From: an uncultured Hormoscilla sp.
Lineage (GTDB): Bacteria > Cyanobacteriota > Cyanobacteriia > Cyanobacteriales > Desertifilaceae
NCBI GenBank assembly: GCA_963921275.4
Contig: OZ001293.3
Span: 1,120,001 to 1,184,000, forward strand
DNA length: 64,000 bases
Direction: 5' to 3'
The translations under genes and the position numbers were made by a program. Under the pieces are notes generated by a model. That model worked only from the letters and a program-made list of their open reading frames with translations, was not told the origin of the DNA and ran no database searches. Every line of letters starts with the position of its first letter. The first letter of the stretch is position 1. Below are positions 7,906-61,624 of this stretch, piece by piece.

Positions 7906-8014
7906 GCATAACCGGTACGAGCCAATAATAACACCGGTGTTAAGAGAGGGATTTTCGGTGTGAAATGGTTTGTCAATCCTATTGGCTATTCTCCTAATCT
8001 GTGTTAACCTAACT

Positions 8015-8178
8015 TAATGTAGTCGGTTCTGATGGGGAACAGCCATCAGAGGTAACGGGGAAAGTTCGGTGCAAGTCCGACCCTGTCCCGCAGCTGTAAT
8101 CAGACAAGTTTGTCTGTAAGTCAGAAGGCCCGCCGATGAAAAGCACAGTAAGTTAAGCATCTGCGAGGTACGGATGAT
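8015..8178 (+). ncRNA. Cobalamin (B12) riboswitch
   Basis: GGTTC...GGGGAAAGTTCGGTGCAAGTCCGA.CTGTCCCGCAGCTGTAA...AAGTCAGAAGGCCCGCC core. Hairpin CATCTGCGAGGTACGGATG covers an SD and ATG. Upstream of hupE/DUF1636/cobW. Confidence 0.92.
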
Positions 8179-17390: not shown

Positions 17391-19669
17391 TCTTCCATGA
17401 TTAATAGAGAAGAATAGCCGATGAAAAAAAATCCTATTACCTTGAAGTTATTGGGTCAGATAGAGGCAACTTTAGCTTTCCAGTTTGGTGCCAACGGTAG
17501 CCCAGTCCAAGCTCAAATAGTACCTGACGCCACCCTGCCAAGTAATTCCCGGGTTACCAGGGATGGCACAAGCTTCACCATTGACGGGGGAACAGTCAGG
17601 GTCCCAACCATTTTCACAGTTTTACTGAATTTTCTGTTCCCACTGGCGCCGAAGCATTCTTCAACAATGCAGAAGGCATTGAGAACATCATTACCCGCGT
17701 TACGGGGGACACAATATCCAATATTGATGGATTAATTCGCGCGGGGGGCGATGCTAACCTGTTTCTCCTTAACCTCAACGGCATTGTTTTTGAATCAAAT
17801 GCCAGACTCGACATCGGTGGTTCGTTTTTTGCCAGTACCGCTGACAGGATGCTGTTTGATGATGGTAGCAGCTTCAGCGCCACAAATCCGGCAAGTAAGC
17901 CATTGCTGACGATTAATGTTCCCATTGGCTTACAATGGAATGGACAGAATCAAGGAACCATTCTAGTAAGAGGCACTGGACAGCATCTCAAGGTTGAAGG
18001 ACGCATAGTTTCACCATCGGTTGTCGGAGCAGGTCAAAGCGACACAGGTCTGCGGGTAAACCCCGGTACGGTAAGACCCTAGCTCTAGTTGGGGGGAATG
18101 TCAGTTTTGATGGTGGGATATTGACAGCACCAGGAGGACGAGTAGAATTAGGTGCTCTCGCCCAAGGAAAGGTTGAGTTCAATCAATTTGACGGCAGTTT
18201 GAACTATGAGGGAGTGGAAAGTTTCGGTGACATCCTACTCGAGAGACAAGCATTAGTTGATGCTAGTGGGGTTGGTGGGAGCGCAATTCAGGTACAAGGA
18301 CGAAGTCTGGAACTCCGGGATGGTTCATTGATTGGTAGTGATAAATATGTAGTGATAGAACATTCCATCCCTCTATTAATCCTTACTTTTCTTAGGAATG
18401 ATATAACAGCTCTTTATCTTAGCCAAATTGATAGCAATGATAAAATATTCTCATGTATAGCCCATCAGAAAAATGCTCTTATGTTATTAGTCAAAAGCGA
18501 GTATAGACTTATGAACACATCATCATCTTTAGGGTCGCGACCCAATTGCCCTTATTGTAATTGTGAGCGAACAGTAAAAAATGGTAGTACTCATAATAAA
18601 AAGCAAAAATATGTAAAAAATCGGCAATAAATTGAAAACCCGACAGCAGGTATCGTCCGAAAAGAAAAAGAATATAGATGAGCTATTACTTGAAAGAATA
18701 GGCAAGTATTGCGCGTCGAGTAAAGCTTTCACAAACCTGGCGTTAATAAAAAATCTGCCGTGAGATAAAGGTTTCAGACAAGCCCAAAGGAAAATTGACT
18801 ATTGAATGTGATGAAATGTGGTCTTGGGAATAAAGAAAACAAACACTTGATACAAAAACAAGAGAAATTGTAGGAGTTGGGCGATCGCAAAAAAATTGTG
18901 GAAATATTTACCTTTATCGACGCATTTTTTTACTTTTTGGGAAGCATATAACACAGTAATACCGAAGTCATAAAGCGGTAGGTAAAGAAACTGGAAAAAC
19001 TAATCATATTGAAAGGTTAAACAACGAGGCAAAGAATTAGTCGCTTGGTTCGGAAAACATTATCATTCTCTAAGAAGAAAATCACGCGATTTGGTATTTT
19101 GTGCATGATTACAGTGCGATTTTTTTTATTGTAAAATGACTTGACACAGGTCCAAAAAAATGGAACACTAGCAGGGTTCCATTAGCCCTGACAACTTTTA
19201 GATGATGGTGGTGAAAGCCCACCCCTCCAGGTGCAGGAGTGACAGCACTCTTCCGACGGTAGCGATGGCATCAATCCGTAAAGCGGGAGAGAAAGGCGCA
19301 ATAACTGGCAGCTTAAACCGGTTACCGTCAAGCAAGTAGTCATGGTGAGCAAAAGCAAAGGCTCATAAGTGTCGTTATACCAAACCAGCGAAAAGGCTGA
19401 TACGCTGGCCCAAAAGGGAAAGGATACAGGTCATTGGCGGTTGTAATTCGACCAATAAGCACTGACAACAAACCCGGCATATAGAGTCCACCTAAAACTA
19501 CGACCAATCATCTAGAGGAACGAAGTAAACCAGGTACATACTCTCAACCACCGGTCGATAGGTTGAGTAGCCACCACAGGCGCAACATCTGCTCTCCGGA
19601 AGGCAGGTTGTATCTGGGAAAGATTTCGAGGAGAAGCCAACGCCTGTCTGTAATGGATAGGATATGCAG

Positions 19670-20612
19670 GTGCGATTCGTTCAGGCGTAAACCGGTGACG
19701 GTGAAAGTCTGGTCTGGTTTCATTTGCTAGACAACTCTGGTTATCATGGGGGTTAAATTCCCTCTCCCCAGGTGTGGGGGGTCGAGGGTACTACCGGTCC
19801 TTAGTGCTGCGGAGTCACATCGCCGTGGTGCTCCGCTAGGACTTAAATGTAGGGTAGCTGGCAGCCTAAGCTAGCAACACCGCGCTTGTTAGATGTTCAT
19901 GGTTAGAACAAGCGAACCTGTGTAAGCCTCGTCACCTATAACCAGCGGAATAAGGCTGATACGCTGGCCCAAAAGGGAAATGGTAGTTAGTGTTGGTAAT
20001 CTGTACTTACTAGCATCGCACTCGAAGAACTCCCGGGGTATAGCAGGAACCTAAAAGCATCGAGAAATGATACCAGGGAACGAAGTAACCTCTTGTGTGC
20101 AGTTCGGCTCAACGGGGCCGAACCAGTTAGATGTACGTCCGCGTAGCGTGCGCGGAGCGCATAGCGCAAGCCACGAGGGGAAGGATGTCCTAAGAAGCAA
20201 ATGCCCGGGGTAATGCCCGTGGATAAGCTGACGTCGGACGGATATGGTAAGAAGCCTTTGGTGAAAGTAGCCCTAATATGTCGCAAAACTTAGGAGAAAT
20301 CCAAAAGTATGAATATGGACTAGAGTCTCAGCCGGGTAAAGTTCAGAGCCCCGATAAATCAGGAATGGGGAAATGTTAGTAAAGAGCGGTTAGACCGGTT
20401 TGCTGAACTACCCTCCGCGAACCTTCCGGAGCTGAAATCATTAACGGTCCAATAGGATTGACCATAAGGGGTAAAATTACAGAGGGTAAGGGGAAACGGG
20501 GTGACCTAATTATTGATGATGATATGCCTAAGGACAAGCCCCAGCGGTGAAAGTCGCAAGTCCGGTTTCGCTCTTGGAGGGTTGGGAAGTGATTCCCAGC
20601 TCGACCCCGACC
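19670..20612 (+). mobile_element. ORF-less group II intron I4 (943 nt) nested in I3 near the DIII/DIV junction
   Basis: GTGCGATTCG...CTCGACCCCGACC. Removal restores GGATATGCAGACGCCCTC, matching sister introns. Confidence 0.92.
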
Positions 20613-20664
20613 ACGCCCTCACGGTAACGTTAATTGTAAAGTTGTAAGTAGCAATACACAGGTC

Positions 20665-22442
20665 ATGAGCACGATTTCCGAATCGATGAATGAATGAAAG
20701 GATACCCCCTGGCCTCGGCTGGAGCGGGTAGTCTTTAAGTTGCAAAAGCGAATTTACAGAGCGGCAATGGAAGGCGTAATAAGCGACCAGTTCGCAGACT
20801 CCAAAGGTTACTGGTAAAATCCCGGGCTGCCAAAAGTCTAGCGGTACGACAGGTAACTCAAGACAACCAGGGAAAGAAGACGGCGGGAGTGGACAGTGTA
20901 AAAGCACTGACCCCAAAGCAACGCTCAGAACTGGTAGGACGGATTGAAATCTCAAACAAGGCCAAACCTACACGTCGTGTATGGATACCAAAGCCGGGGA
21001 GAGAGGAGAAGCGTCCTTTAGGAATACCAACGATGTACGACCGTGCGACACAGGGACTCCTCAAGATTGCGCTCGAACCCGAATGGGAAGCGTACATGGA
21101 AGGGAACTCCTATGGATTCAGACCGGGTCGGGGATGCCACGATGCAATCAAGGCAATATTTAACAGCATCAGATATAAACCCAAGTGGGTATTGGATGCC
21201 GATATTGCAAAATGTTTCGATAAGATTGACCACAAAGCGCTAATAAAAAAATTAAATACAACGTCACCAATCCGTAAGCAGATACGGGCATGGTTAAAAG
21301 CCGGGGTGATAGACAAAGGAGAATGGCATGCAACCGAAGCGGGAACACCCCAAGGGGGAGTCATATCACCACTACTAGCCAACATAGCCCTACATGGACT
21401 AGAGGAGGCAGTAAAGGAACTCGCCAGGACACAAAAAGAAAAGCAAAAGCTGACAGTAGTCAGGTATGCTGATGACTTTGTGGTAATGCATGAAGATAGG
21501 GGAATGATAGACAGAGCGCAGATAGTGGTGGCAGAATGGCTAAAGGGAATAGGGCTAGAATTGAAAGCCGAGAAGACAAAAATAGCTCATACGCTAAAAG
21601 GAGAAAGCCCGGGGTTTGACTTCCTGGGTTTCAAAGTAAGGCAATATGAGATAGGTAAATACAGAACCGGCAAGTCAACCAACGGAACACCCCTAGGATT
21701 CAAAACCCTAATCAAACCCAGTAATAAGTCCATAGGGAAGCATAAAGAACGGCTATCAGAAATGGTGGCCAGCCATAAAGCAGCACCACAAGCAGCCTTA
21801 ATAAGTAAGCTAAACCCGATAATACGGGGATGGTCAAACTATTATAGGACAGTGGTAAGTAAAGAAACATACAGCTACATGGACCACTACCTATGGACCA
21901 TTCTCTGGCAGTGGGCAAAAAGGAGACATCCCAATAAATCCAGTCATTGGATAGCTCGTAAGTACTGGTCCCTGAGTGAGAACGGTAAATGGCGATTCCG
22001 GTGCCAAATAGGAGAGGAAGAAATAACGCTGTACAGACACTCCGAAACTGAGATAATCAGGCACATAAAAGTGAAAGGTACAGCAAGCCCATATGACGGG
22101 AACCTTACATATTGGAGTACGAGATTAGGCAAAAGCCCCGAGCTAAATAAGAGGGTAGCAACGCTACTCAAGAGACAAAAGGGAAAGTGCCAACAATGCG
22201 GATTAACGTTTATGGATGGTGACAAGTGGGAAGTTGACCATATCAAGCCCCTCTCATTAGGGGGTAAAAACCAGTACGACAACCTACAGTTACTACACAA
22301 ACATTGCCACGATATAAAGACTGCCAGCGATGGTAGTCACAGCCGTACCCATGACAAGGGTGGCGTTACTGAGGAGCCGGATGATGCGAAAGTATCAAGT
22401 CCGGTTTTGGAGACGAGTCGGAGGGGTGACCCTCTGGCTTAG
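20665..22442 (+). pseudogene. ltrA: Intron-encoded RT/maturase/HNH with an N-terminal nonsense codon and a +2 frameshift; 20889-22442 is open
   Basis: TGG>TGA at codon 11 relative to the I6 protein; YADD and HNH motifs intact. Confidence 0.85.
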
Positions 22443-22894
22443 TTTAATACAAATGCTTGTCGGGTTAGTTGTGCCATCACTACATGTTTATCACTACCCC
22501 CATTGATATTTCAAGTCTGCTGGGAAGAGATTTCTGTCAAGTGAGTCAAGATAGTTCTTTCGTCATCACCGGACGGGCGGGTTACCTGGGAGTCCTAGGG
22601 ACTATCTTACTGGTAACCTTGTGAGAGTTGGCTTGGTAGACCCAGTCATAGGGGGCAATACTTCTGAATCTACCTCTGTCGATATATCTCGTCAGACTTG
22701 GCTGGGTGTTGACAACAGAGAAAGGTCTGGGGCGCACAGTCCCTATATAGGGGCATCTGGTCAAATTGTCGAAGCGACGGGTTGGATACGGCATCCCGAT
22801 GGGACGATCGAGCTAGTTGCCTATCTCGGGCCATGAGTAGTCCCGGGTTAAAACCTGTTGAGTGCAGCGATCTGAGATAATGCTCAATGTAAAT

Positions 22895-23121
22895 TACAAT
22901 AGTCCGGACCGTTTTGGCTGTACGTAGCTGCAAGCCTTGCGATGCACTCGGGGCGCGCTACTCGCACTACCCCTCGCGCATCGCAGCGTCAGCCTTTGCT
23001 CGATAGAGCAATTTTAGGCAAGTTAGCCCTGGGGCAGACATTGAAAAAAATAAGGCGCTTTTGGTTGCAACCCTTGTGTTGTGGTCGTTCTGAGGGTCTA
23101 AAAACTGTCCGGAGTATTGTA
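22895..23121. mobile_element. MITE-like element
   Basis: Terminal IR TACAATAGTCCGGACCGTTTT / AAAACTGTCCGGAGTATTGTA. Confidence 0.65.
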
Positions 23122-24147
23122 GAATGAAATAGCCCTGCCGATCTGTCCAGTTGATAAACCTCTAGCCATCCCCGATCGGGATCGAAGATAGCATAAGTAG
23201 GAAGAAGCAGGATCTGCTCGTAGTAGTACCATTTTCCTGGGGGATGTTTGGATTGTGCGATGAGTTCTAGCCTAACGTAGTCAAATACGGAACGCTAGCC
23301 TAGGAAACTAGGAACTCTGATATTCATGGGGGTTAAATTCCCTCTCCCCAGGCGCGGGGGTAACCGCGTGAGGTGCTGCGGAGTAACATCACCGTGGTGC
23401 CTCCCGAGGACTTAAATGTAGGATAGCTGACAGCCTAAGTCGGTGACGCCGCGCTTGTTAGATGTCCAAGGTCAGAACAAGCAAATTCATGTAAGCCTCG
23501 TCACATCCAACCAGCGAAATAAGGCTTTATGCGCTGGCCCAAAAGGGAAAGTAGTTAGTATTGGTTATTATCCATGACCAATATCGTGCTCGAAGAACTA
23601 CCGGGGTAAAGTGGAGACCTAAAGGCATCGCGCTTCGGATATCAGGGAACGAAGTAACTACTCGTGTACTGTCCGATCGGACCAGTCAGATGTGAAGCGC
23701 AAGTCACGGGTAGAGAGATGGCCCAAGAAGCAAATGCCTGGAGTAATGTCTAGGATAAGCAGACGTGCGGTGAGGGTGGGTGATAGTAGGAAGTCTCGGG
23801 TAAAAGTAGCTCTAAAACGTTATCAGCCCTTCACTGCGAAGTGATGAGGAATAAATTACTGGTAAAACGGACGTGAAAATGGTGATACTAAAGGTTATCC
23901 GGCAGCGCCACTCACCAACCAGTGAAGGAGCAAAATCGCATGAGACAAGGGACAATGAGAGTAATGTGCGATTCGTTTAGTGTAAACCACCGGCGATAAG
24001 TCGATGGGGGACCACTGGCAGGGTTCCATCAGCCCTGACAACTTCTAGATGATGGTGGTGAAAGTCCACCCCTCCAGGTGCAGGAGTGACAGCACTTACC
24101 CGACGGTAGCGATGGCATCAATCCGTAAAGCGGGTAAGAAAGGCGCA

Positions 24148-25089
24148 GTGCGAATCGTTTTGGCGTAAGTCTGAAATATGGCGATCGCCGGGCTGGTTAA
24201 TACCAGCAACTCTGGTCATCATGGGGTTCAATTCCCCTTCCCCCAGGTACGGGGGTGACCGCGTGAGGTGCTGCGGAGTAACATTACCGTGGTGCCTCCC
24301 GAGGACAAATGTAGGATAAGGTCTCAGCCCAGAGACCGACGCCGCATGGCTGCGCCACGCTGCGCGATCGGAAAGAGGCTCATGGTTAGAGCAAGCGAAT
24401 CCCTGTAAGCATCGTCATCTTAAACAAGCGAAAAGAGGCTGACACGCTTGGTGCAAAATGCGCACGCAGTCCGCGTATCAGTGGTTGCACGTCACTGATA
24501 TCGTACCCGAAATGACTGCCGGTGTATAGGGGAGACCTAAAAGCCTCGTGAAATGATACCAGGGAACGTTCCGGACAAGAGCGGTGCTGTCCAGATGGAC
24601 AAGTCAGATGTGCGTCCGCGTAGCGTGCGCGCAGCGCCTAGCGCATGCCCGCGTGGGGAGGGAGGTCCTAAGAAGCTAATGCCCGGGGTAATGCCTGTGG
24701 ATATGCAGACGTAGGACGGATATGGTAAAAAGCTCTAGGAGATAGTAGCCCTCTAAACGTGCTTAACCAGTGGCAACACTAGGTAGTAATGATGGACTGA
24801 AATCCTAACCGGGTAAAAAATTTAGAGGCCCCATACGGGCACCTGTTAGTAAAGAACGGTCATAGTGGTTTTCTAGTTCTCCCCCGTAAACCTTCCGGAG
24901 TTAGGTACTCAACTAGTTCATGACTGACCATAAAGGGGCTATATTTCATAGGGCAAGGGACAACGGGAGTAATCCCTAGTAATCCTACCCGTGACAAGGG
25001 TTTACCAACCAGTAGCCGTGTGCGGTGAAAGTCGCTCTTCAGGTTCCGAATGGGAGGATTGTCCCGCGAGGGACAGCTCGACCCCGACC
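24148..25089 (+). mobile_element. ORF-less group II intron I7 (942 nt) nested in DI of I6
   Basis: GTGCGAATCG...CGACCCCGACC. Removal restores AAGGCGCAATAACTGG, as in I3. Confidence 0.92.
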
Positions 25090-25512
25090 ATAACTGGTAG
25101 CCTGAACCAGTTACCGCCAAGCAAGTAGTCATGGTGAGCGAAAGCAAAGACTCATATAAGTGTCGTTACATTGAACCAGCGAAAAGGCTGATGCGCTGGC
25201 CCAAAAGGGAAAGGATACAGGTCATTGGCGGTTGTTTTTCCGACCAATAAGCACTGACAATAAACCCGGCATAGAAAGTCCACCTAAAACTACGACCAAT
25301 CATCTAGAGGAACGAAGTAAACCAGGTACATACTCTCAACCACAGGTCGATAGGTTGAGTAGCCACCACAGGCGCAACATCTGCTTTTATTTGGCAGGTT
25401 GTATCTGGGAGAGATTTCGTGGAGAAGCTAACGCCCTTCTGTAATGGACGGGATATGCTGACGCCCTCACGGTAACGTCAATTGTGAAGTTGTAAGTAGC
25501 AATGCATACGTC

Positions 25513-27291
25513 ATGAGCACGATCTCCGAATCGATGAATGAATGGAAGGATACCCCCTGGCGAAAGTTGGATCGGGTAGTCTTTAAGTTGCAAAAACGAA
25601 TTTACAGAGCGGCAATGGAAGGCAATAAGCGAACGGTTCGCAGACTCCAAAGGTTACTGGTAAAATCCCGGGCTGCCAAAAGTCTAGCGGTACGACAGGT
25701 AACTCAAGACAACCAGGGAAAGAAGACAGCGGGAGTGGACGGTGTAAAAGCACTGACCCCAAAGCAACGCTTAGAACTGGTAGGACAAATTGAAATCTCA
25801 AACAAGGCCAAACCTACACGTCGTGTATGGATACCAAAACCAGGGAGAGACGAAAAGCGTCCACTAGGAATACCAACGATGTACGACCGGGCGACACAAG
25901 GACTCCTCAAAATTGCGCTTGAACCCGAATGGGAGGCGCATATGGAAGGAAACTCCTATGGTTTCAGACCGGGTAGGGGATGTCACGATGCAATACAGGC
26001 AATATTCGGAAGCATCAAACAAAAATCAAAGTGGGTATTGGATGCTGATATTGCAAAATGTTTTGACAAGATAGACCACAGGGCGCTACTGGAAAAACTG
26101 AATACAACATCACCCATTCCTAGACAAATACGGGCATGGTTAAAAGCCGGTGTGATGGACAAAGGGGAGTGGCACGCAACCGAGGCGGGAACGCCCCAAG
26201 GGGGTGTCATATCCCCACTGCTAGCCAACATAGCCCTCCACGGGTTAGAGGAGGCAGTAAAGAAACTCGCTATGACACAAAGGGAAAAGCAGAAGCTAAC
26301 AGTAGTTAGATATGCAGACGACTTTGTGATAATGCACGAGGATAGGGAGATGATAGACAGAGCGCAGACAGTGGTAGCAGAGTGGCTAAAAGGAATGGGG
26401 TTAGAGCTGAAAGCCGAAAAGACAAAGATAGCCCACACACTAATCGAAGAAAACCCGGGGTTTGATTTCCTAGGATTCAACGTAAGGCAACATCAGGTGG
26501 GAAAACACAGAACCGGCAAATCAACTCAGGGAACACCCCTAGGCTACAAAACCCTAATCAAACCCAGTAAAAAGTCCATAGGGAAACATAAAGAACGGTT
26601 ATCAGAAGTGGTAACTAGCCATAAAACAATACCGCAAGAGGCCTTGATAAGTAGGCTAAACCCAATAATACGGGGATGGTCAAACTATTACAGGACAGTG
26701 GTAAGTAAGGAAACTTACAACGATATGGATAAATACCTATGGAACATCCTATGGCAATGGGCCAAAAGGAGGCACCCTAATAAGTCAAGTCACTGGATAG
26801 CCCGTAAGTACTGGTCCGTAGACCAGGATGGTAAATGGCGATTCCGATGTAAGACAGGAGAGGGAGAGATAACGCTGCGCAAACACTCCGAAACTGAGAT
26901 AGTCAGACACGTAAAAGTGAAAGGAATAGCAAGCCCATATGACGGGAACCTTACATATTGGAGTACAAGGTTAGGCAAAAACCCCGAATTGAGTAAGAGG
27001 GTAGCAACGCTACTTAAGAAGCAAAAAGGAAAATGCCAACACTGCGGACTAACATTCAAGGACAGTGACAAATGGGAAGTTGACCAGATCAAGCCCCTTT
27101 CATTAGGAGGTAAGGACCGGTATGACAACCTACAATTACTGCACAAGCATTGCCACGACTCAAAGACTGTCAACGATGGCAGCAAAAACAGCCGTACCCA
27201 TGACAAGGGTGATGTTGCCGAGGAGCCGGATGAGGTGAAAGTCTCACGTCCGGTTCTGAAGACGAGTCGGTCCGGTGACGGACTGGCTTAG
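25513..27291 (+). CDS. ltrA: Intact group II intron RT/maturase/HNH protein (592 aa)
   Basis: Full RT0-7 with YADD, X domain and CxxC/HNH region; HNH His is replaced (VDQI). Confidence 0.95.
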   Translation: MSTISESMNEWKDTPWRKLDRVVFKLQKRIYRAAMEGNKRTVRRLQRLLVKSRAAKSLAVRQVTQDNQGKKTAGVDGVKALTPKQRLELVGQIEISNKAKPTRRVWIPKPGRDEKRPLGIPTMYDRATQGLLKIALEPEWEAHMEGNSYGFRPGRGCHDAIQAIFGSIKQKSKWVLDADIAKCFDKIDHRALLEKLNTTSPIPRQIRAWLKAGVMDKGEWHATEAGTPQGGVISPLLANIALHGLEEAVKKLAMTQREKQKLTVVRYADDFVIMHEDREMIDRAQTVVAEWLKGMGLELKAEKTKIAHTLIEENPGFDFLGFNVRQHQVGKHRTGKSTQGTPLGYKTLIKPSKKSIGKHKERLSEVVTSHKTIPQEALISRLNPIIRGWSNYYRTVVSKETYNDMDKYLWNILWQWAKRRHPNKSSHWIARKYWSVDQDGKWRFRCKTGEGEITLRKHSETEIVRHVKVKGIASPYDGNLTYWSTRLGKNPELSKRVATLLKKQKGKCQHCGLTFKDSDKWEVDQIKPLSLGGKDRYDNLQLLHKHCHDSKTVNDGSKNSRTHDKGDVAEEPDEVKVSRPVLKTSRSGDGLA

Positions 27292-28041
27292 TTTAATCTC
27301 TAGTAATCCTACCATTGACTTGGGCCTACTACCCAGTAGCCGTGTGCGGTGAAAGTCGCATGCACGGTTTCGAATGGGAGGGTTGGAAAGCGATTTCCAG
27401 CTCGACCCCTAATTAATCGAGTATTCGCCACCTTCGGTGTCCGACAAAAAACTCCATCGCGATTATTGGCACTTCTCCTTCCCTGTGGGGGGTGTAGCTT
27501 CTGTGTCCCTCGGGTAGTGCGAGTAGCGCTCCCGAGGGACACAGAAGACGAGTTTGGTTCGTCCGGTTGGGGGGGATGACCGATCGCACGTAAAACCAAT
27601 CCGGCGCTAAAGAAACTATTTTTCCATCTACAGTAGCGCAGATATCGCAGTTAGTACCGATTAATGCCTGGGGTAAAATGCGTCCAGCGATTCCCAAGCT
27701 TTCGGTTAACGCTGCTGCTAGCGGGGGTTGATTGAAGTTGTCAACGGGGTCGTCTGGTATAGGAAAATCAGGAGGTAATTTCTCCCAAATGATTATCGGT
27801 TTACTGATAGTTATGGCCATGATAATCTTTCCCCCGTGCTGTTATCATTATTATGAGGGAGGAGGTGCGATTCGTTTCGGTATAAATCAGAAATGATGAA
27901 ATCCGGGTTGGGCGCAAGCTCAACAACTCAGGTCCGGAATGGGGGTTCAATTCCCCTCCCCCGCGGGGGTGACACCAGACCTCGGTGCTGCGTCCTAACA
28001 TCGCCCCCGGTGCTGAGCGAGGTCTTAAATATAGGATTAAA

Positions 28042-30709
28042 CTAAGCCAACGGGTCACCCCGCCGACTCGTCTTCAGAACCGGACGTGAGACTTTCACCT
28101 CATCCGGCTCCTCAGTTTCGCCATCCTTGTCATGGATACGGCCTTTGTCACCATCTCTGGCAGACTTTACATCATGGCAATAATCATGCAGCAACTGTAG
28201 GTTGGTATACCAGTCTTTACCTCCTTTAGAAACTGGTAGAATATGGTCAACCTCCCATTTGTCGCCATCTTTGAATTTCAGTCCGCAGTGCACACACTTA
28301 CCATCCTGCTCTTTTAGCAGTCTGATAACTCTAGCGCTCACATCCGGGCTTTTTCTCAGTCTTTTGCTCCAATAAACCAGATTACCGTCAAACGGGCTAG
28401 CTGTCCCCTTAACCTTTACGTGTCTGTGCGATTCGTTCTAGCCTAACGTGGTCAAACACGGAACGCTAGCCCGGTTTCATTAGCCGGGAACTCTGACCGC
28501 ATGGGGGTTAAATTCCCCTCCCCCCAGGTACGGGGGTGACACCGGTCCTCGGTGCTACGAAGCGACATCATCGTGGTGCTAAGCGAGGACTCAAATGTAG
28601 GATAACTGGCAGCCTAAGCCGGTGACGCCGCTAGGAAAGATATCCAAGGTTAGAGCAGGCAAACATGTGCAAGCCTCGTTATAAGGAACCAGCGAAATAA
28701 GGCTATATGCGCTGGCCTAAAAAGGAAATGGTAGCTAGTATTAGTTTTAGACTCTGGCTAATATAGTACTCAAATAGCTCCCGGGGTATAGTGTGGACCT
28801 AAAGGTATCGCGAAATGTTGTTAGGGAACGAAGTAACCTCTCGTGTGCTGTCCATCAGGACAAGTTAGATGTTAAGCGCAAGCCACGGGGGGAGGGATGG
28901 CCCAAGAAGCGAATGCCCGGGGTAATTCCTGGGATAACATCTACAGTAATGTAGATGATGCTGGGTAGCCAGCGCTGACGTGGGTCGGTGATACTAGGAA
29001 GCTGCTGGAATGAGTAATCCTAAAAAGCCACGGAACTAATCCGAAACGCAAGTGGAGGATAAGGTATGGATAACTGGTAAAACTGACTTGAAAATGGTGA
29101 TACTAACGGTTATCAGAACAACCACTCGCTAAACCAGGAAAGGGAAGAAAAGACAGGCGGCAAGGGCTAACGGAAGTAATTCCTATTAAGTCTACCTATG
29201 AAAAGGGCCTAGTACCCAGTAGCCGGATGCGGTGAAAATCGCAAGTCCGGTTCCTCAAGGGAGGGTCGGGAAGCGATTCCCGGCTCGACCCCATCCGATT
29301 ATTTCAGTTTCAGAGTATCGGTTTAGCTTCATTCCTCCATCTTCTTTAGACTTGCCAGCGAACCTCCACCGGTCTTTCCCGGTCATACCCCAGTACTTAC
29401 TAGCAATCCATTTGCCCGTTTTGTTAGGATGTCTTCTCTTTGCCCATCGCCATAACAACTTCCATAAGTAGTTATCCATAGAGCTGTAAGTTTCTTTACT
29501 TACCACCGTCCTATAATAGTTGCTCCATCCCCTTATCATCGGGTTTAGTCTTGCTATTAAGGCCGTTTGCGGTGCCCCTTTATGGCGGCGAACTATCTCT
29601 GATAGCTGCTCTTTATGATTCCTTATGGATTTATCGCTAGGCTTGATTAGGGTCTTGAATCCTAGGGGGGTTCCGTTACAGAGTTTGCCGCTTCTGTGTT
29701 TCCCTACTTTATATTGTCGGATATTGAACCCTAAGAAGTCAAATCCAGGGCTCTCTCCTTCCAATGTGTGGGATATCTTCGTTTTCTCGGCTTTTTGCTC
29801 CAGCCCTATTCCCTTCAACCACTCCTCAATCACTCCTTGAGCTTCCTCAATCATCGACCGGTCATTATGTATTACCACAAAGTCATCCGCATATCTTACT
29901 ACGGTTAACTTCTCCTTCTCTCTTTTTGTGTGAGCGAGACCCATTACTACCCCTTCCAGCCCATGTAAAGCTATATTGGCTAGTAATGGAGATATAACCC
30001 CACCTTGGGGAGTTCCGGCTTCTGTGGATTCCATCCTTCCCCGGTCCATCACCCCAGCTTTTAGCCATGCCCGTATTTGTTTACGGATTGGTGACGTAGT
30101 ATTCAATTTCTTTAGGAGCGCGGAATGGTCAATTTCGTCGAAACACTTCGCAATATCCGCATCTAACACCCATTTCGATTTTTGACTGATGCTAGCGAAT
30201 ATCGCTGCAACTGCATCATGACATCCCCTACCTGGTCTAAACCCGTAGGAATTGGCTTCCATATACGCTTCCCATTCAGGCTCTAGCGCTTCTTTAACCA
30301 ATCCCTGAAGTGCGCGGTCGTGCATCGTTGGTATTCCTAATGGCCGCTTCTCCTCCCTTCGTGGCTTCGGTATCCACACTCTTCGTGTGGCTTTTGCCTT
30401 CGCCTTTCGAGTAACTTTGATTTGACCTACCAGTTCGATACGTTCTTTTGGGGTCAGTGCTTTCACACCATCCACACCAGCCGTCTTCTTTCCCTGGTTT
30501 TGTTGTGTTACCTGCCGTACCGCTATCATCTTCGCGGACCATGACCTATTTAGTAATCCTTGGAGCTTACGAACCTTCTGCTTATTACCTTCCAGTGCCG
30601 CTCTGTAAATTCGCTTTTGCAGCTTAAAAACTATCCTTTCCAGCTTTCGCCAGGCGACAGTCTTCCATTCATACTCTTGTCTTTCGACTAAGTTCCGTGA
30701 CATATTCAC
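28042..30709 (-). pseudogene. ltrA: Intron-encoded RT/maturase/HNH interrupted by antisense intron I10
   Basis: Removing 28426-29296 rejoins SETEII|RHVKVKG in frame. Confidence 0.9.
28426..29296 (+). mobile_element. ORF-less group II intron I10 (871 nt), antisense within the I9 ORF
   Basis: GTGCGATTCG...CTCGACCCCATCC; boundaries fixed by the host reading frame. Confidence 0.93.
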
Positions 30710-31071
30710 TACTACTTACAACTTCACAATTGACGAGACCGTGAGGGCGTCAGCTTATCCTATCCATTACAGACAGGCATTTGCTTCTCCACTCAATCTC
30801 CCCCAGTTGCGTCCTGCCTTCCGGAGAGCAGATGTTACGCCTGTGGTGGCTACTCCATCTATCGACCGGTGATGGAGAGTGCTACAACCGGGTTACTTCG
30901 TTCCTACAGATGATTGGTCGTAACCTTAGACGGGTTCTCTACGCCGGGTTTATTGTCAGTGCTTATTGGTCGGGTATACATCCGCCAATGACCAGTATCC
31001 TTTCCCTTTTTGGGCCAGTGTATCAGCCTTATTACACTGGATAGGCTTTACGACGTTGCAAACCTTCGCTT

Positions 31072-31906
<835 letters not shown>

Positions 31907-32961
31907 TACGCTCATCATAGTTACTTGCTCGACGATGACCGGTCTAGGCTCCCAGCCATAGCGCCTTTCCTTCCCGCTTCACGGATTGATGCCATCGCTA
32001 CCGTGGGGAGGGTGCTGTCACTCCTGCACCTGGAGGGGCGGGCTTTCACCACCATCACCTGTAAGTTCTCGGGACTTACGAAATCCCGGTAGCGGTCCCC
32101 CTCCTTGACTTGTGTCAAGTTAGTTTACGCTAAACGAATCGCACATAAACCCTAGCCTAAAGGGTGACTAGGAAAGAAGTCCATGGTTAGAACAAGGGAA
32201 TCCCTGTAAGCGTCGTAAACATTAACAAGCGAAAAAGGCGCTCCACCCTTGGTGCAAAATGCGCAAGCAGTCCGCGTATCAGTATTATTCTTTTACTGAT
32301 ATCGTACCCTCAATAACTGTCGGCGTATAGGGGAGACCTAAAGGCTTCGCGAAATGATACCTGCCAACGAAGTAACCCCCGTGATTCTATCCGCAAGGAT
32401 AAGTCAGATGTGAAGCGCATGGTCACGTGGGGAGGGATGTCCTAAAAAGCTAATGCCCGGAGTAATGCCTGGGATATGCCCACGTCGGACGGTGATAGTA
32501 GGATGTTCTGGGAGAAAGTAGCTCTCTAAAAGTGCTGTACCGGTGTATCGACCCACCAGGTAGTAATGTGGACTAAAATCCTATCCAGGTAAAAAACAGG
32601 GGGTACGGGCACCTGTTAGTAAAGAGCGGTTCTGGTGGTTTACCAGTTTATCCCCCGCTCACCTTCCGGAGGTAGGTAGTCAAATAGTCCCTCAGACCAC
32701 CATAAAGGAGCCAAATTTCATGGGGCAAGGGACAACGGGAGTAATCCCTAGTAATTCTGTCAGTGACAGTGACCTACTACCCACAAGTAGCCTGGTGCGG
32801 TGAAAGTCGCTCTTCAGGTTCGGAATGGTCGGGTCGGGGGGTGACCCCTGGATCGACCCCGATCAGCCCTTGCCCGTCCTTCCCTCCTTGTCCTTTAGCC
32901 TTATTTTTTTCAGCCAGCGATAGTTAGGGACGATCGCTTCTCAAAAGCTATCCTATAGGAA

Positions 32962-59877: not shown

Positions 59878-61624
59878 ACGGTCCGCGGACGGCCCGAAAA
59901 ATCGGCACATTCTCGGCTCGCCATTGTGCCCCCGGTAATTTCACCCTTAACCCAATTTGTTTCACCAGGGACTCAACCCGACCAGAGCCAATCGAGTGCC
60001 GAGCTGCCTGCCCGTTCGCGCAGCGGCCCGACGCCAGGAGGGCTAGCCTGGTAGTCAATGATGCGCGTCTGATGGTGCTTCAAGTAGTTGATCAACCCTG
60101 TGGCTCCCCGACATTGCTGTTGGCGCAGATAACTAATCGCCCTCTGGGTCTCCCCTCGCCACAGGAGTGCACGGTCCGCGGACGGCCCGAAAAATCGGAT
60201 CTGCACGGTCCGCGGACGGCCCGAAAAATCGGATTGAGCCGGTGTCCCTTGCACCTTATTGGCATTTTCCATTAGGTGATACCAATCGAGCACTTCGATA
60301 CGTTGTTCTGGTGTCCCGATACCACTGAAAATGTTCCACACCCCATCATGACCATCTCCGAGACCGGTGAACTGCGCCCCTAGGGGCTGGGCATTCACCC
60401 ACTCAAGCAGCCCTTGATTATCCTTGAAGAAAGCCACACTGCCTTGCTCATGGACATTTAAGGCTTTGTATTCTCGCCACTCACCAGGTTGACCCTCCAC
60501 GGTCCGCGGACGGCCCGAAAAATCGGTACGAAGGCGAATCATGCCGCCATCCAAGCTGAGCTCCTGAATCGGTTCAGCTATCTCGGTCGGGGTCGAGCTG
60601 GTACTCACGTACCAACCCTCCAAGAGCGAAACCTGAAGAGCGACTTTTACCGCACACGGCTACTGGTTGGTAAGCTGCTGTCATCAGTAGGATTACTGGG
60701 GGTTACCCCCGTTGTCCCTTACCCTTTGAAATTTTACCCCTTATGGTCAATCCTATTGGACCGTTTAAGTACTTAGCTCCGGAAGGTTCGCGGAGGATAG
60801 TTCAGCAAACCATACTCGCCGCTCTTTACTAACATCTTCCCCATTCTGCTTTCCGCTTTTCGTAGGGGCTCTGAACTTTACCTGGCTAAGATTTGAATCC
60901 AAGATTCGTACTTTTGGAATTTCTTCCTAGTTCTGTGACATTAAGGTTACTTTTCCCAAGGGTGTCTTACCATATCCGTCCTACGTCTGCATATCCACAA
61001 GCATTACCCCGGGCGTTGGCTTCTTAGGACATCCTTCCTCTTCGTGGCTTGCGCTTTACATCTAACTTGTCCAAATGGGGACAGCTCACGAGAGGTTACT
61101 CCGTTCCCTGGTATCATTTCGCGATGCTTTTAGGTTCCTACTATACCCCGAGAGTTCTTTGAGTACGTTATTAGCCAGAGGCAAGAGCTAATACTAACTA
61201 CCATTTCCCTTTTTGGGCAAGCGCATAAGCCTTCTTCCGCTGGTTCTGGTTAACGAGGTTTACATAGGTTCGCTTGTTCTAACCATTAACATCTTTCCTA
61301 GCGGCGTCACCGGCTTAGGCTGCCAGTTATCCTACATTTAAGTCCTCGCTCCACACCACGGTGATGTGACTCCGCAGCACCTCCGACCGGTAGTACCCTC
61401 GACCCCCGTACCTGGGGAAGGGGAATTTAACCCCCATGATAACCAGAGTTATCTGGCTGATAGAGCCAGACCCGACTTTCACCTACTGGCTTATGCCGGA
61501 ACGAATCGCACTACCTCAGACCAGTCCTCTCGTTGAACAAAGCGTTGGAGCGTACTGTGGGAGATGCTCACCCCAGTCAGCATCGCGAGATCTTTTACGG
61601 TCCGCGGACGGCCCGAAAAATCGG
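59878..61624. repeat. Five identical 28-nt repeats ACGGTCCGCGGACGGCCCGAAAAATCGG (59878, 60171, 60205, 60499, 61597)
   Basis: Direct reading; all lie within the transposase gene. Confidence 0.92.
60585..61511 (-). mobile_element. ORF-less group II intron I14 (927 nt), sense in the transposase
   Basis: GTGCGATTCG...CTCGACCCCGACC. Removal gives in-frame REDWSEV|EIAEPIQ. EBS1 TGCCTC pairs with exon end GAGGTA. Confidence 0.93.

Follow-up and report, generated by a model that had tools for sequence, protein, structure and literature searches.

A three-level nest of co-oriented group II introns in an intron-rich Hormoscilla genome

A 64,000-nt stretch of the chromosome of an uncultured Hormoscilla sp. 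(genome G000, C1:1120001-1184000; hereafter the window, to which coordinates without a contig name refer) holds three group II introns nested in one another, all on the plus strand: I7 (24148-25089) lies within I6 (23966-27297), which lies within I5 (23255-27413). This triple nesting is correct to the nucleotide. I6 encodes a reverse transcriptase (RT), and I5 and I7 have no open reading frame (ORF). The locus is quite likely a record of three successive retrohoming events in an intron-rich cyanobacterium, with no host function dependent on it. Nested group II introns are an already known arrangement, and the present case is a by-product of introns jumping into introns; what the locus adds is a nucleotide-exact bacterial nest of three levels in which, less usually, an ORF-less intron harbours one that encodes an RT. 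It matters more for drawing attention to a genome in which introns colonise each other in both orientations and lineages with a defective-looking domain V are still spreading. The most interesting lead is a mobile lineage with a degenerate domain V, which has I7 among its members.

Boundaries, domains and host gene

The boundaries of the introns were checked against their copies elsewhere in the genome and against an empty site in G001, a congeneric genome used for comparison. Each intron starts with GTGCG (at 23255, 23966 and 24148). With I7 removed, I6 measures 2390 nt and aligns without gaps and at 99.916% identity to two uninterrupted copies (C1:5051772-5054161, minus strand, and C1:6623488-6625877, plus strand), neither of which carries I7. 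With I6 removed together with I7, I5 measures 827 nt and matches uninterrupted relatives over its full length at about 82% identity, and the I6 junction (gagagtaat/GTGCG...TTTAAT/ctctag) is also present in a second I5 copy at 6.62 Mb. The I5 site is empty in G001 (locus L009), where position 651/652 corresponds to 23254/27414 of the window and the left flank runs straight into the right; the full insert at the locus is 4159 nt. As in other twintrons, each inner intron lies wholly inside the outer one, and its removal restores the outer sequence. An earlier sequence-only reading had proposed three co-oriented introns nested here, and every boundary, the common strand and the GTGCG starts bear this out. 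The parts of the nest and of the gene around it are as follows.

22992-23254, minus strand: Uma2-family pseudogene, C-terminal piece; the minus-strand frame spans the I5 junction; this is the plus-strand 5' flank of I5 and holds the target motif tttggatt
23255-23965, plus strand: I5 5' segment, domains I-III plus domain IV (5' half); GTGCG start, 5'-end profile match (E=2.4e-18), collinear with relatives, empty site in G001
23966-24147, plus strand: I6 5' segment, domain I as far as nt 182; joined to 25090-27297, 99.9% identity to copies over 2390 nt
24148-25089, plus strand: I7, complete, ORF-less, 942 nt, GTGCG...GACC, directly after the target ggtaagaaaggcgca; seven other copies at 99.5-99.9% identity
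25014-25045, plus strand: non-canonical domain V of I7; five of eight lower-helix pairs, without an RF00029 match, same block in 49 copies
25090-27297, plus strand: I6 3' segment, comprising what remains of domain I, domains II-IV (ORF included) and domains V-VI; copy alignment, RF00029 match
25513-27291, plus strand: I6 intron-encoded protein, 592 aa, intact (RT, maturase, HNH endonuclease); Pfam and structure-chain matches
27298-27413, plus strand: I5 3' segment, domain IV (3' half) plus domains V-VI, ending in ...CCCCTAAT; RF00029 match, fold better than shuffles (z=-2.5), empty site in G001
27414-27820, minus strand: Uma2-family pseudogene, N-terminal piece; differs from the G001 ortholog by an indel of 1 nt and a palindromic insert of 45 nt

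I5 matches the RF00029 model of domains V-VI at 27335-27413 (47.4 bits, cut-off 40), has a canonical domain V of 8 + 5 bp and ends in AAT; its branch A in domain VI was located by eye only. With this 3' end (AY), RF00029 domains V-VI and its 5' end, I5 has the features of a group II intron. I6 matches the same model, with the same cut-off, at 27221-27297 (58.8 bits) and combines ribozyme ends with a domain IV ORF for RT, maturase (X) and endonuclease, the features of a mobile RT-encoding group II intron. The encoded protein matches the Pfam families RVT_N (1.6e-32), RVT_1 (2.5e-45), GIIM (3.2e-25) and HNH (3.1e-13), all above the cut-offs. Its ORF is stop-free in all three I6 copies, and proteins of this type have 16 full-length, stop-free frames in the genome. 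Among solved structures, chain 6me0_C is the nearest match (E=1.4e-113), and we take it to be the TeI4h protein of Thermosynechococcus elongatus. The protein frames at 25513-27291 and 20889-22442 extend through domains V-VI and end 6 nt before the 3' splice site.

Rfam models of domains I-IV gave no useful match at the locus (one match, at E=0.55, falls elsewhere in the window), so domains were assigned from position and from the consensus fold of 37 representatives of the intron family. In this fold the I6 site, 39 nt upstream of I5 domain V, falls within the long hairpin that immediately precedes domain V, in agreement with the earlier placement of I6 in domain IV of I5. The I7 site is position 182/183 of I6, upstream of the putative loops of exon-binding sites (EBS) 2 (~258) and 1 (~324), and I7 therefore lies in domain I of I6, as had also been proposed.

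When the flanks of I5 are joined, the minus strand reads as one gene split by the intron, and no convincing gene is found on the plus strand. A tblastn search found a paralog elsewhere in the genome in which both pieces are contiguous and which matches Pfam Uma2 (PF05685) with 29.2 bits against a cut-off of 27. The fragments in the window by themselves give no Pfam match or a weak Uma2 match (E=0.1), and their family is named via the paralog. The G001 ortholog is an intact minus-strand ORF of 239 aa that contains the empty I5 site. It has neither the 45-nt perfect-palindrome insert (~27500-27545) nor the 1-nt indel in an A/T run (~27446-27451) found in the window. From these comparisons, I5 appears to lie antisense in a decayed Uma2-family pseudogene, and because the gene is already broken and is read from the other strand, no host product would depend on splicing. 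Of the earlier claim that each removal restores a conserved host sequence, the exact restoration stands at each level; the host of I5, however, is a Uma2-family gene on the opposite strand, frameshifted and carrying the 45-nt insert.

A nest of repeats also raises the question of assembly. I5, I6 and I7 are all multi-copy repeats that could have been misjoined into a triple nest that does not exist in the cell, and in a read check with four runs of DNA-derived short contigs, these contigs break at introns and none spans the stretch. However, the window lies in a 6.88-Mb contig of a seven-contig assembly, and short contigs bridge 23254/23255 (X4) and 27413/27414 (X2, X3) without differences, although these runs may be the assembly's own source. 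In addition, all junctions fall exactly at intron ends next to a fitting target motif, which is not expected of a chance mis-join. An assembly artefact is thus highly improbable. The 24147-to-25090 joint seen in the read-derived contigs was considered as a trace of splicing and rejected, as it equals the DNA of the uninterrupted I6 copies.

Order of insertion and the second composite

The nest was probably built in three steps. ORF-less I5 would first have reverse-spliced into the antisense strand of a Uma2-family gene. RT-encoding I6 would then have entered I5 by homing, in a small domain IV hairpin, at the site that is also used in the second I5 copy, and the most recent step would be the insertion of ORF-less I7 into domain I of I6. 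At the level of sequence comparison, this order of I5, I6 and I7 and the exactness of the insertions are established. A late arrival of I7 is supported by its 99.5-99.9% identity to seven other copies and by the other two copies of I6, which are without it. The junctions are exact and show no target-site duplication, and the flanks of the copies are unrelated apart from short motifs complementary to loops at homologous positions of domain I. Candidate EBS hexamers in these loops are TATCCA at 315 in I5, GTTGTT/GTTTTT at 324-327 in I6, and TGCACG at 339 and TCTTAA at 271 in I7.

A search for the composite at other loci, suggested as a check in the sequence-only reading, found a second I5::I6 at C1:6622023-6625993, at a different target site. 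Its I6 is uninterrupted and has no I7, and another ORF-less intron (C1:6622111-6622864) sits at I5 position 88/89. The flanks of the two composites share only a target motif of about 15 nt, so the second composite is a separate insertion; segmental duplication was ruled out as its source. Between the two, the I5 parts differ at 5 of 827 positions and the I6 parts at 2 of 2390 (Fisher p=0.014), i.e., about sevenfold per site, on seven substitutions in total. The third I6 copy, which lies outside any intron, is equally close to the I6 of the window, and the latter carries the majority base at all four positions that vary among the three copies. This pattern favours separate homing of I6 into two older, already dispersed I5 copies.

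Alternatively, I5::I6 may act as a single ORF-containing intron, in which I5 uses the RT of its passenger and the pair retrohomes as a unit. This is in line with the earlier suggestion that I6 gives ORF-less I5 a protein. Two composites with an identical internal junction at different targets, sharing only about 15 nt of flank, are what such an element would leave behind, and no I6-free I5 copy of the same subtype was found, the next relatives being about 82% identical. Elsewhere in the genome, a 4109-nt composite of three introns occurs at five different sites with 4-14 differences, and composite retromobility is listed as a possibility by Mohr et al. (PMC2882425). However, the skew of 5/827 against 2/2390 is opposed to movement as a unit, as is the free-standing I6 copy that is as close to the I6 of the window as the 6.62-Mb copy is. 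Moreover, only two I5::I6 composites are present, and the target in I5 fits the putative exon-binding loops of I6 itself, so repeated homing of I6 would be expected. The acquisition of a protein by I5 is formally possible but not favoured, and we consider movement of the pair as one intron quite improbable.

Splicing and the variant domain V of I7

If the plus strand is transcribed, I5 would probably be able to fold and splice with the whole insert in its domain IV, much as an ORF-bearing intron does. An insert in domain IV forces no inside-out order for I6 in I5. For I7 in I6, on the other hand, such an order is plausible. The I6 ribozyme at this locus would be disabled unless I7 were removed first, and it is reasonable to infer, from the position of I7 and from published twintrons (PMC4424553, PMC4649490), that I7 must leave before I6 can fold. 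This order is complicated by the mispaired domain V of I7. The 592-aa RT/maturase ORF of I6 lies downstream of I7 and is intact, and its product could still act in trans.

I7 belongs to the intron family of this genome in most respects. It matches the genome's intron profiles at both ends (E=5.6e-15 at the 5' end and E=3.2e-19 at the 3' end) and is therefore a derivative of the family rather than an unrelated element. However, its 3' end gave no RF00029 match even at E<=1 and reads CC rather than AY. A canonical domain V has a 14-bp helix with a 2-nt bulge and matches RF00029, and in I7 only five of the eight lower-helix pairs form. I7 retains the AGC triad together with the upper helix and the GAAA loop, and the four positions between triad and bulge read G.A, U.C, G.U and U.U. 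The 3' 90 nt of I7 fold no better than shuffled sequences (z=+0.31), compared with z-scores of -2.5 for I5 and -4.4 for I6. A search of I7 for an alternative pairing partner of the unpaired 3' strand of domain V found none with one mismatch or fewer; one 9-mer pairs at eight of nine positions if G-U is allowed, probably by chance.

This variant is not confined to the copy in the nest. It is common to all eight near-identical I7 copies, and the same 3' strand of domain V (GTCGC-TC-TTCAGGTT) occurs at 49 intron ends genome-wide, compared with a fully paired domain V in 340 of 445 complete 3' ends. Besides the seven other full-length copies of I7 at 99.5-99.9% identity there is one at 96%, and all are at unrelated sites. 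Among the eight I7-type sites compared (those of the seven copies with at least 99.5% identity and of the 96% copy), seven have TAAGA about 9-13 nt upstream and the eighth has TATAGA. In a subfamily comparison of the variant introns, the I7 subfamily numbers 7 copies, and another numbers 16 copies with at least 97% identity and a common target motif, many of them with a non-GNRA loop. Each variant subfamily occupies different sites that share short motifs, as reverse splicing predicts. In a tree of 37 intron representatives from which domains V-VI were left out, most introns with the variant domain V form one clade, with canonical ones interspersed. Each of two congeners has the exact variant once, 11 other genomes of the same family lack it, and in a collection of species representatives it was found only in two Hormoscilla sp. 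records. In the window, introns with the variant domain V are represented at 25014-25045 (I7), 60588-61511 (minus strand) and 32764-32861 (plus strand). The apparent stronger conservation of the variant domain V (90-95%) than of the rest of the intron (65%) was rejected as circular, given that the sequences had been chosen by the motif.

Near-identical copies with the variant domain V at many sites imply recent mobility. Since I7-type introns have spread to at least eight sites with matching motifs, the variant is compatible with reverse splicing and mobility in vivo, presumably with help in trans. Because domain V is mispaired, the removal of I7 would probably need a trans-acting protein made elsewhere. 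A bolder reading is that a still-jumping ORF-less lineage with a degenerate domain V, if its RNAs are unable to splice by themselves, borrows proteins from other introns and perhaps a domain V in trans from the hundreds of canonical introns in the cell, as a bacterial step towards a shared apparatus like the spliceosome. In that reading, the helix between triad and bulge is replaced by an internal loop, and the 16-copy subfamily has lost the GNRA loop as well. We regard this as unlikely. If it were true, the triple nest would be a natural reporter, with the I6 ribozyme restored only upon excision of I7.

The stack may instead be an inert fossil, in which the plus strand is silent or I7 cannot be spliced, so that no intron is excised and I6 is a dead copy with an intact-looking ORF. 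The host gene of I5 is on the other strand and decayed, and a promoter and terminator scan of the locus gave results no better than shuffles, promoter-like sites being no commoner than in shuffled sequences (13 against 10.5 +/- 2.9). The poor fold of I7 domain V and its missing RF00029 match also fit a fossil. However, the I6 of the window combines the majority base at every variable position with an intact ORF and is therefore young. Furthermore, within 10 kb upstream, all ORFs that reach 120 aa are on the plus strand, so read-through transcription is possible, and I7-type introns have recently spread to at least eight sites with matching target motifs. An inert stack is possible but doubtful, and we prefer to read the locus as a record of successive retrohoming.

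Several observations weigh against this preferred reading. All three introns are known here from DNA alone, and their splicing is predicted. The EBS and the matching intron-binding sites were assigned by position and complementarity only, and other hexamers score equally in an exhaustive scan. The order of I5 and I6 rests on the seven substitutions noted above, and the skew could also stem from gene conversion between copies of I6 or from selection acting on its ORF. The I6/I7 junction, which is unique to this locus, is unbridged among the read-derived contigs displayed. Finally, the three mismatches and one G-U pair between triad and bulge might make I7 unspliceable and the I6 at this locus a dead copy.

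Intron load of the genome and known nested introns

The genome as a whole holds about 490 group II introns, with 484 5' ends and 495 3' ends detected by converged profiles of the first and last 100 nt. Bracket-style pairing of these ends gave 434 introns, which make up 6.9% of the chromosome, and left 50 5' ends and 61 3' ends unpaired. Fourteen group II introns fall in the window by the same profile scan. Among the 434 paired introns, 61 lie within another intron; 39 share the strand of their host intron and 22 have the opposite one (binomial p=0.04). Counting co-oriented nesting only, 396 introns hold none, 35 hold one level and three hold two levels, including the I5/I6/I7 locus. The other two two-level loci agree with each other in all of the 30 nt compared to either side of the inner composite. 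Nesting is thus routine in this genome and exceeds what insertion at random would produce. There is only a mild preference for co-orientation, which is unremarkable for I5, I6 and I7.

The published maximum found is 101 introns, in Arthrospira platensis (Miura et al., 2022, PMC8919778), and a literature search found no higher count. The load here is about five times that figure. A first look at intron candidates gave more than 500 in three of four genomes of the same genus and 8-33 in other genera, with one at 195. A literature search found no paper linking Hormoscilla to introns.

A close parallel in kind is T. elongatus, in which ORF-less TeI3 (F3) introns lie inside TeI4 (F1) introns and TeI3h, and twintrons whose inner introns are identical and whose outer ones have diverged were interpreted as the result of independent insertion (Mohr, Ghanem and Lambowitz, 2010, PMC2882425). 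Both cyanobacteria have a proliferated family of introns with and without an ORF, with insertion at a fixed site in domain IV and inner copies less diverged than outer ones. The ORF-less introns of T. elongatus are mobilised by proteins from other introns (PMC2882425), a likeness that we draw here. Unlike in T. elongatus, the ORF-containing intron here lies inside the ORF-less one, the reverse of the usual polarity, and a third level lies in domain I; moreover, the present genome has about 490 introns compared with 28, and the innermost one has a mispaired domain V. In Methanosarcina acetivorans, up to five introns are nested (Dai and Zimmerly, 2003, cited after Zimmerly and Semper, 2015, PMC4424553). 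There, as here, repeated site-specific homing has stacked ORF-less and RT-encoding introns without any coding exon relying on them, and the nests are standing homing sites. However, those nests are archaeal, reach five levels and arise by homing into intron ORFs, whereas here the introns entered domain I and a domain IV hairpin, and the outermost one is antisense in a pseudogene.

For the Tery_4732 twintron of Trichodesmium erythraeum, sequential splicing with the inner intron first was found by reverse transcription PCR (Pfreundt and Hess, 2015, PMC4649490). It is likewise a cyanobacterial group II twintron in an intron-loaded genome. That twintron lies in sense orientation in a conserved gene whose mRNA is restored by splicing, whereas here nothing on the plus strand is restored and the nest is known from DNA alone. 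Euglena chloroplasts have twintrons and degenerate introns of groups II and III (Copertino and Hallick, cited in PMC4424553 and PMC2882425), some with a degenerate or missing domain V for which trans factors are presumed. Introns within introns are frequent there, as in the present intron-rich genome, and some have a degenerate domain V. The difference is that the Euglena introns are in an organelle and are not known to be currently mobile, whereas the I7-type copies are on a bacterial chromosome and at least 99.5% identical at many sites. It is in intron populations like that of the present genome that splicing is believed to become dependent on shared factors acting in trans.

Other nests are present in the window. 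Adjoining I5, a nest of four introns in mixed orientation spans 27865-32861, in which a plus-strand ORF-less intron is split at about its position 173 by a minus-strand 4109-nt composite (28036-32144) that itself holds one plus-strand and one minus-strand ORF-less intron. This composite consists of an RT-type intron with a co-oriented 832-nt intron and an antisense 867-nt intron, and it also occurs at C1:1056960, 3087153, 4451120 and 3651011 with different flanks and 4-14 differences. Either the composite travelled whole, or homing into the same sites was repeated with great fidelity. Upstream of I5, at 19114-22446 (plus strand), lies a twintron in which an I6-like RT intron (86-93% identity) is interrupted at 19670-20609 by an ORF-less intron of 940 nt; the 3' end of the latter is only a partial profile match. 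Apart from introns, a cobalamin riboswitch at 8007-8151 (plus strand; RF00174, 59.9 bits) looks ordinary. Finally, contig C3 of the assembly (31,420 nt) has a G+C content of 17.6%, compared with 42-49% in the other six contigs, and may be a foreign replicon or a contaminant.

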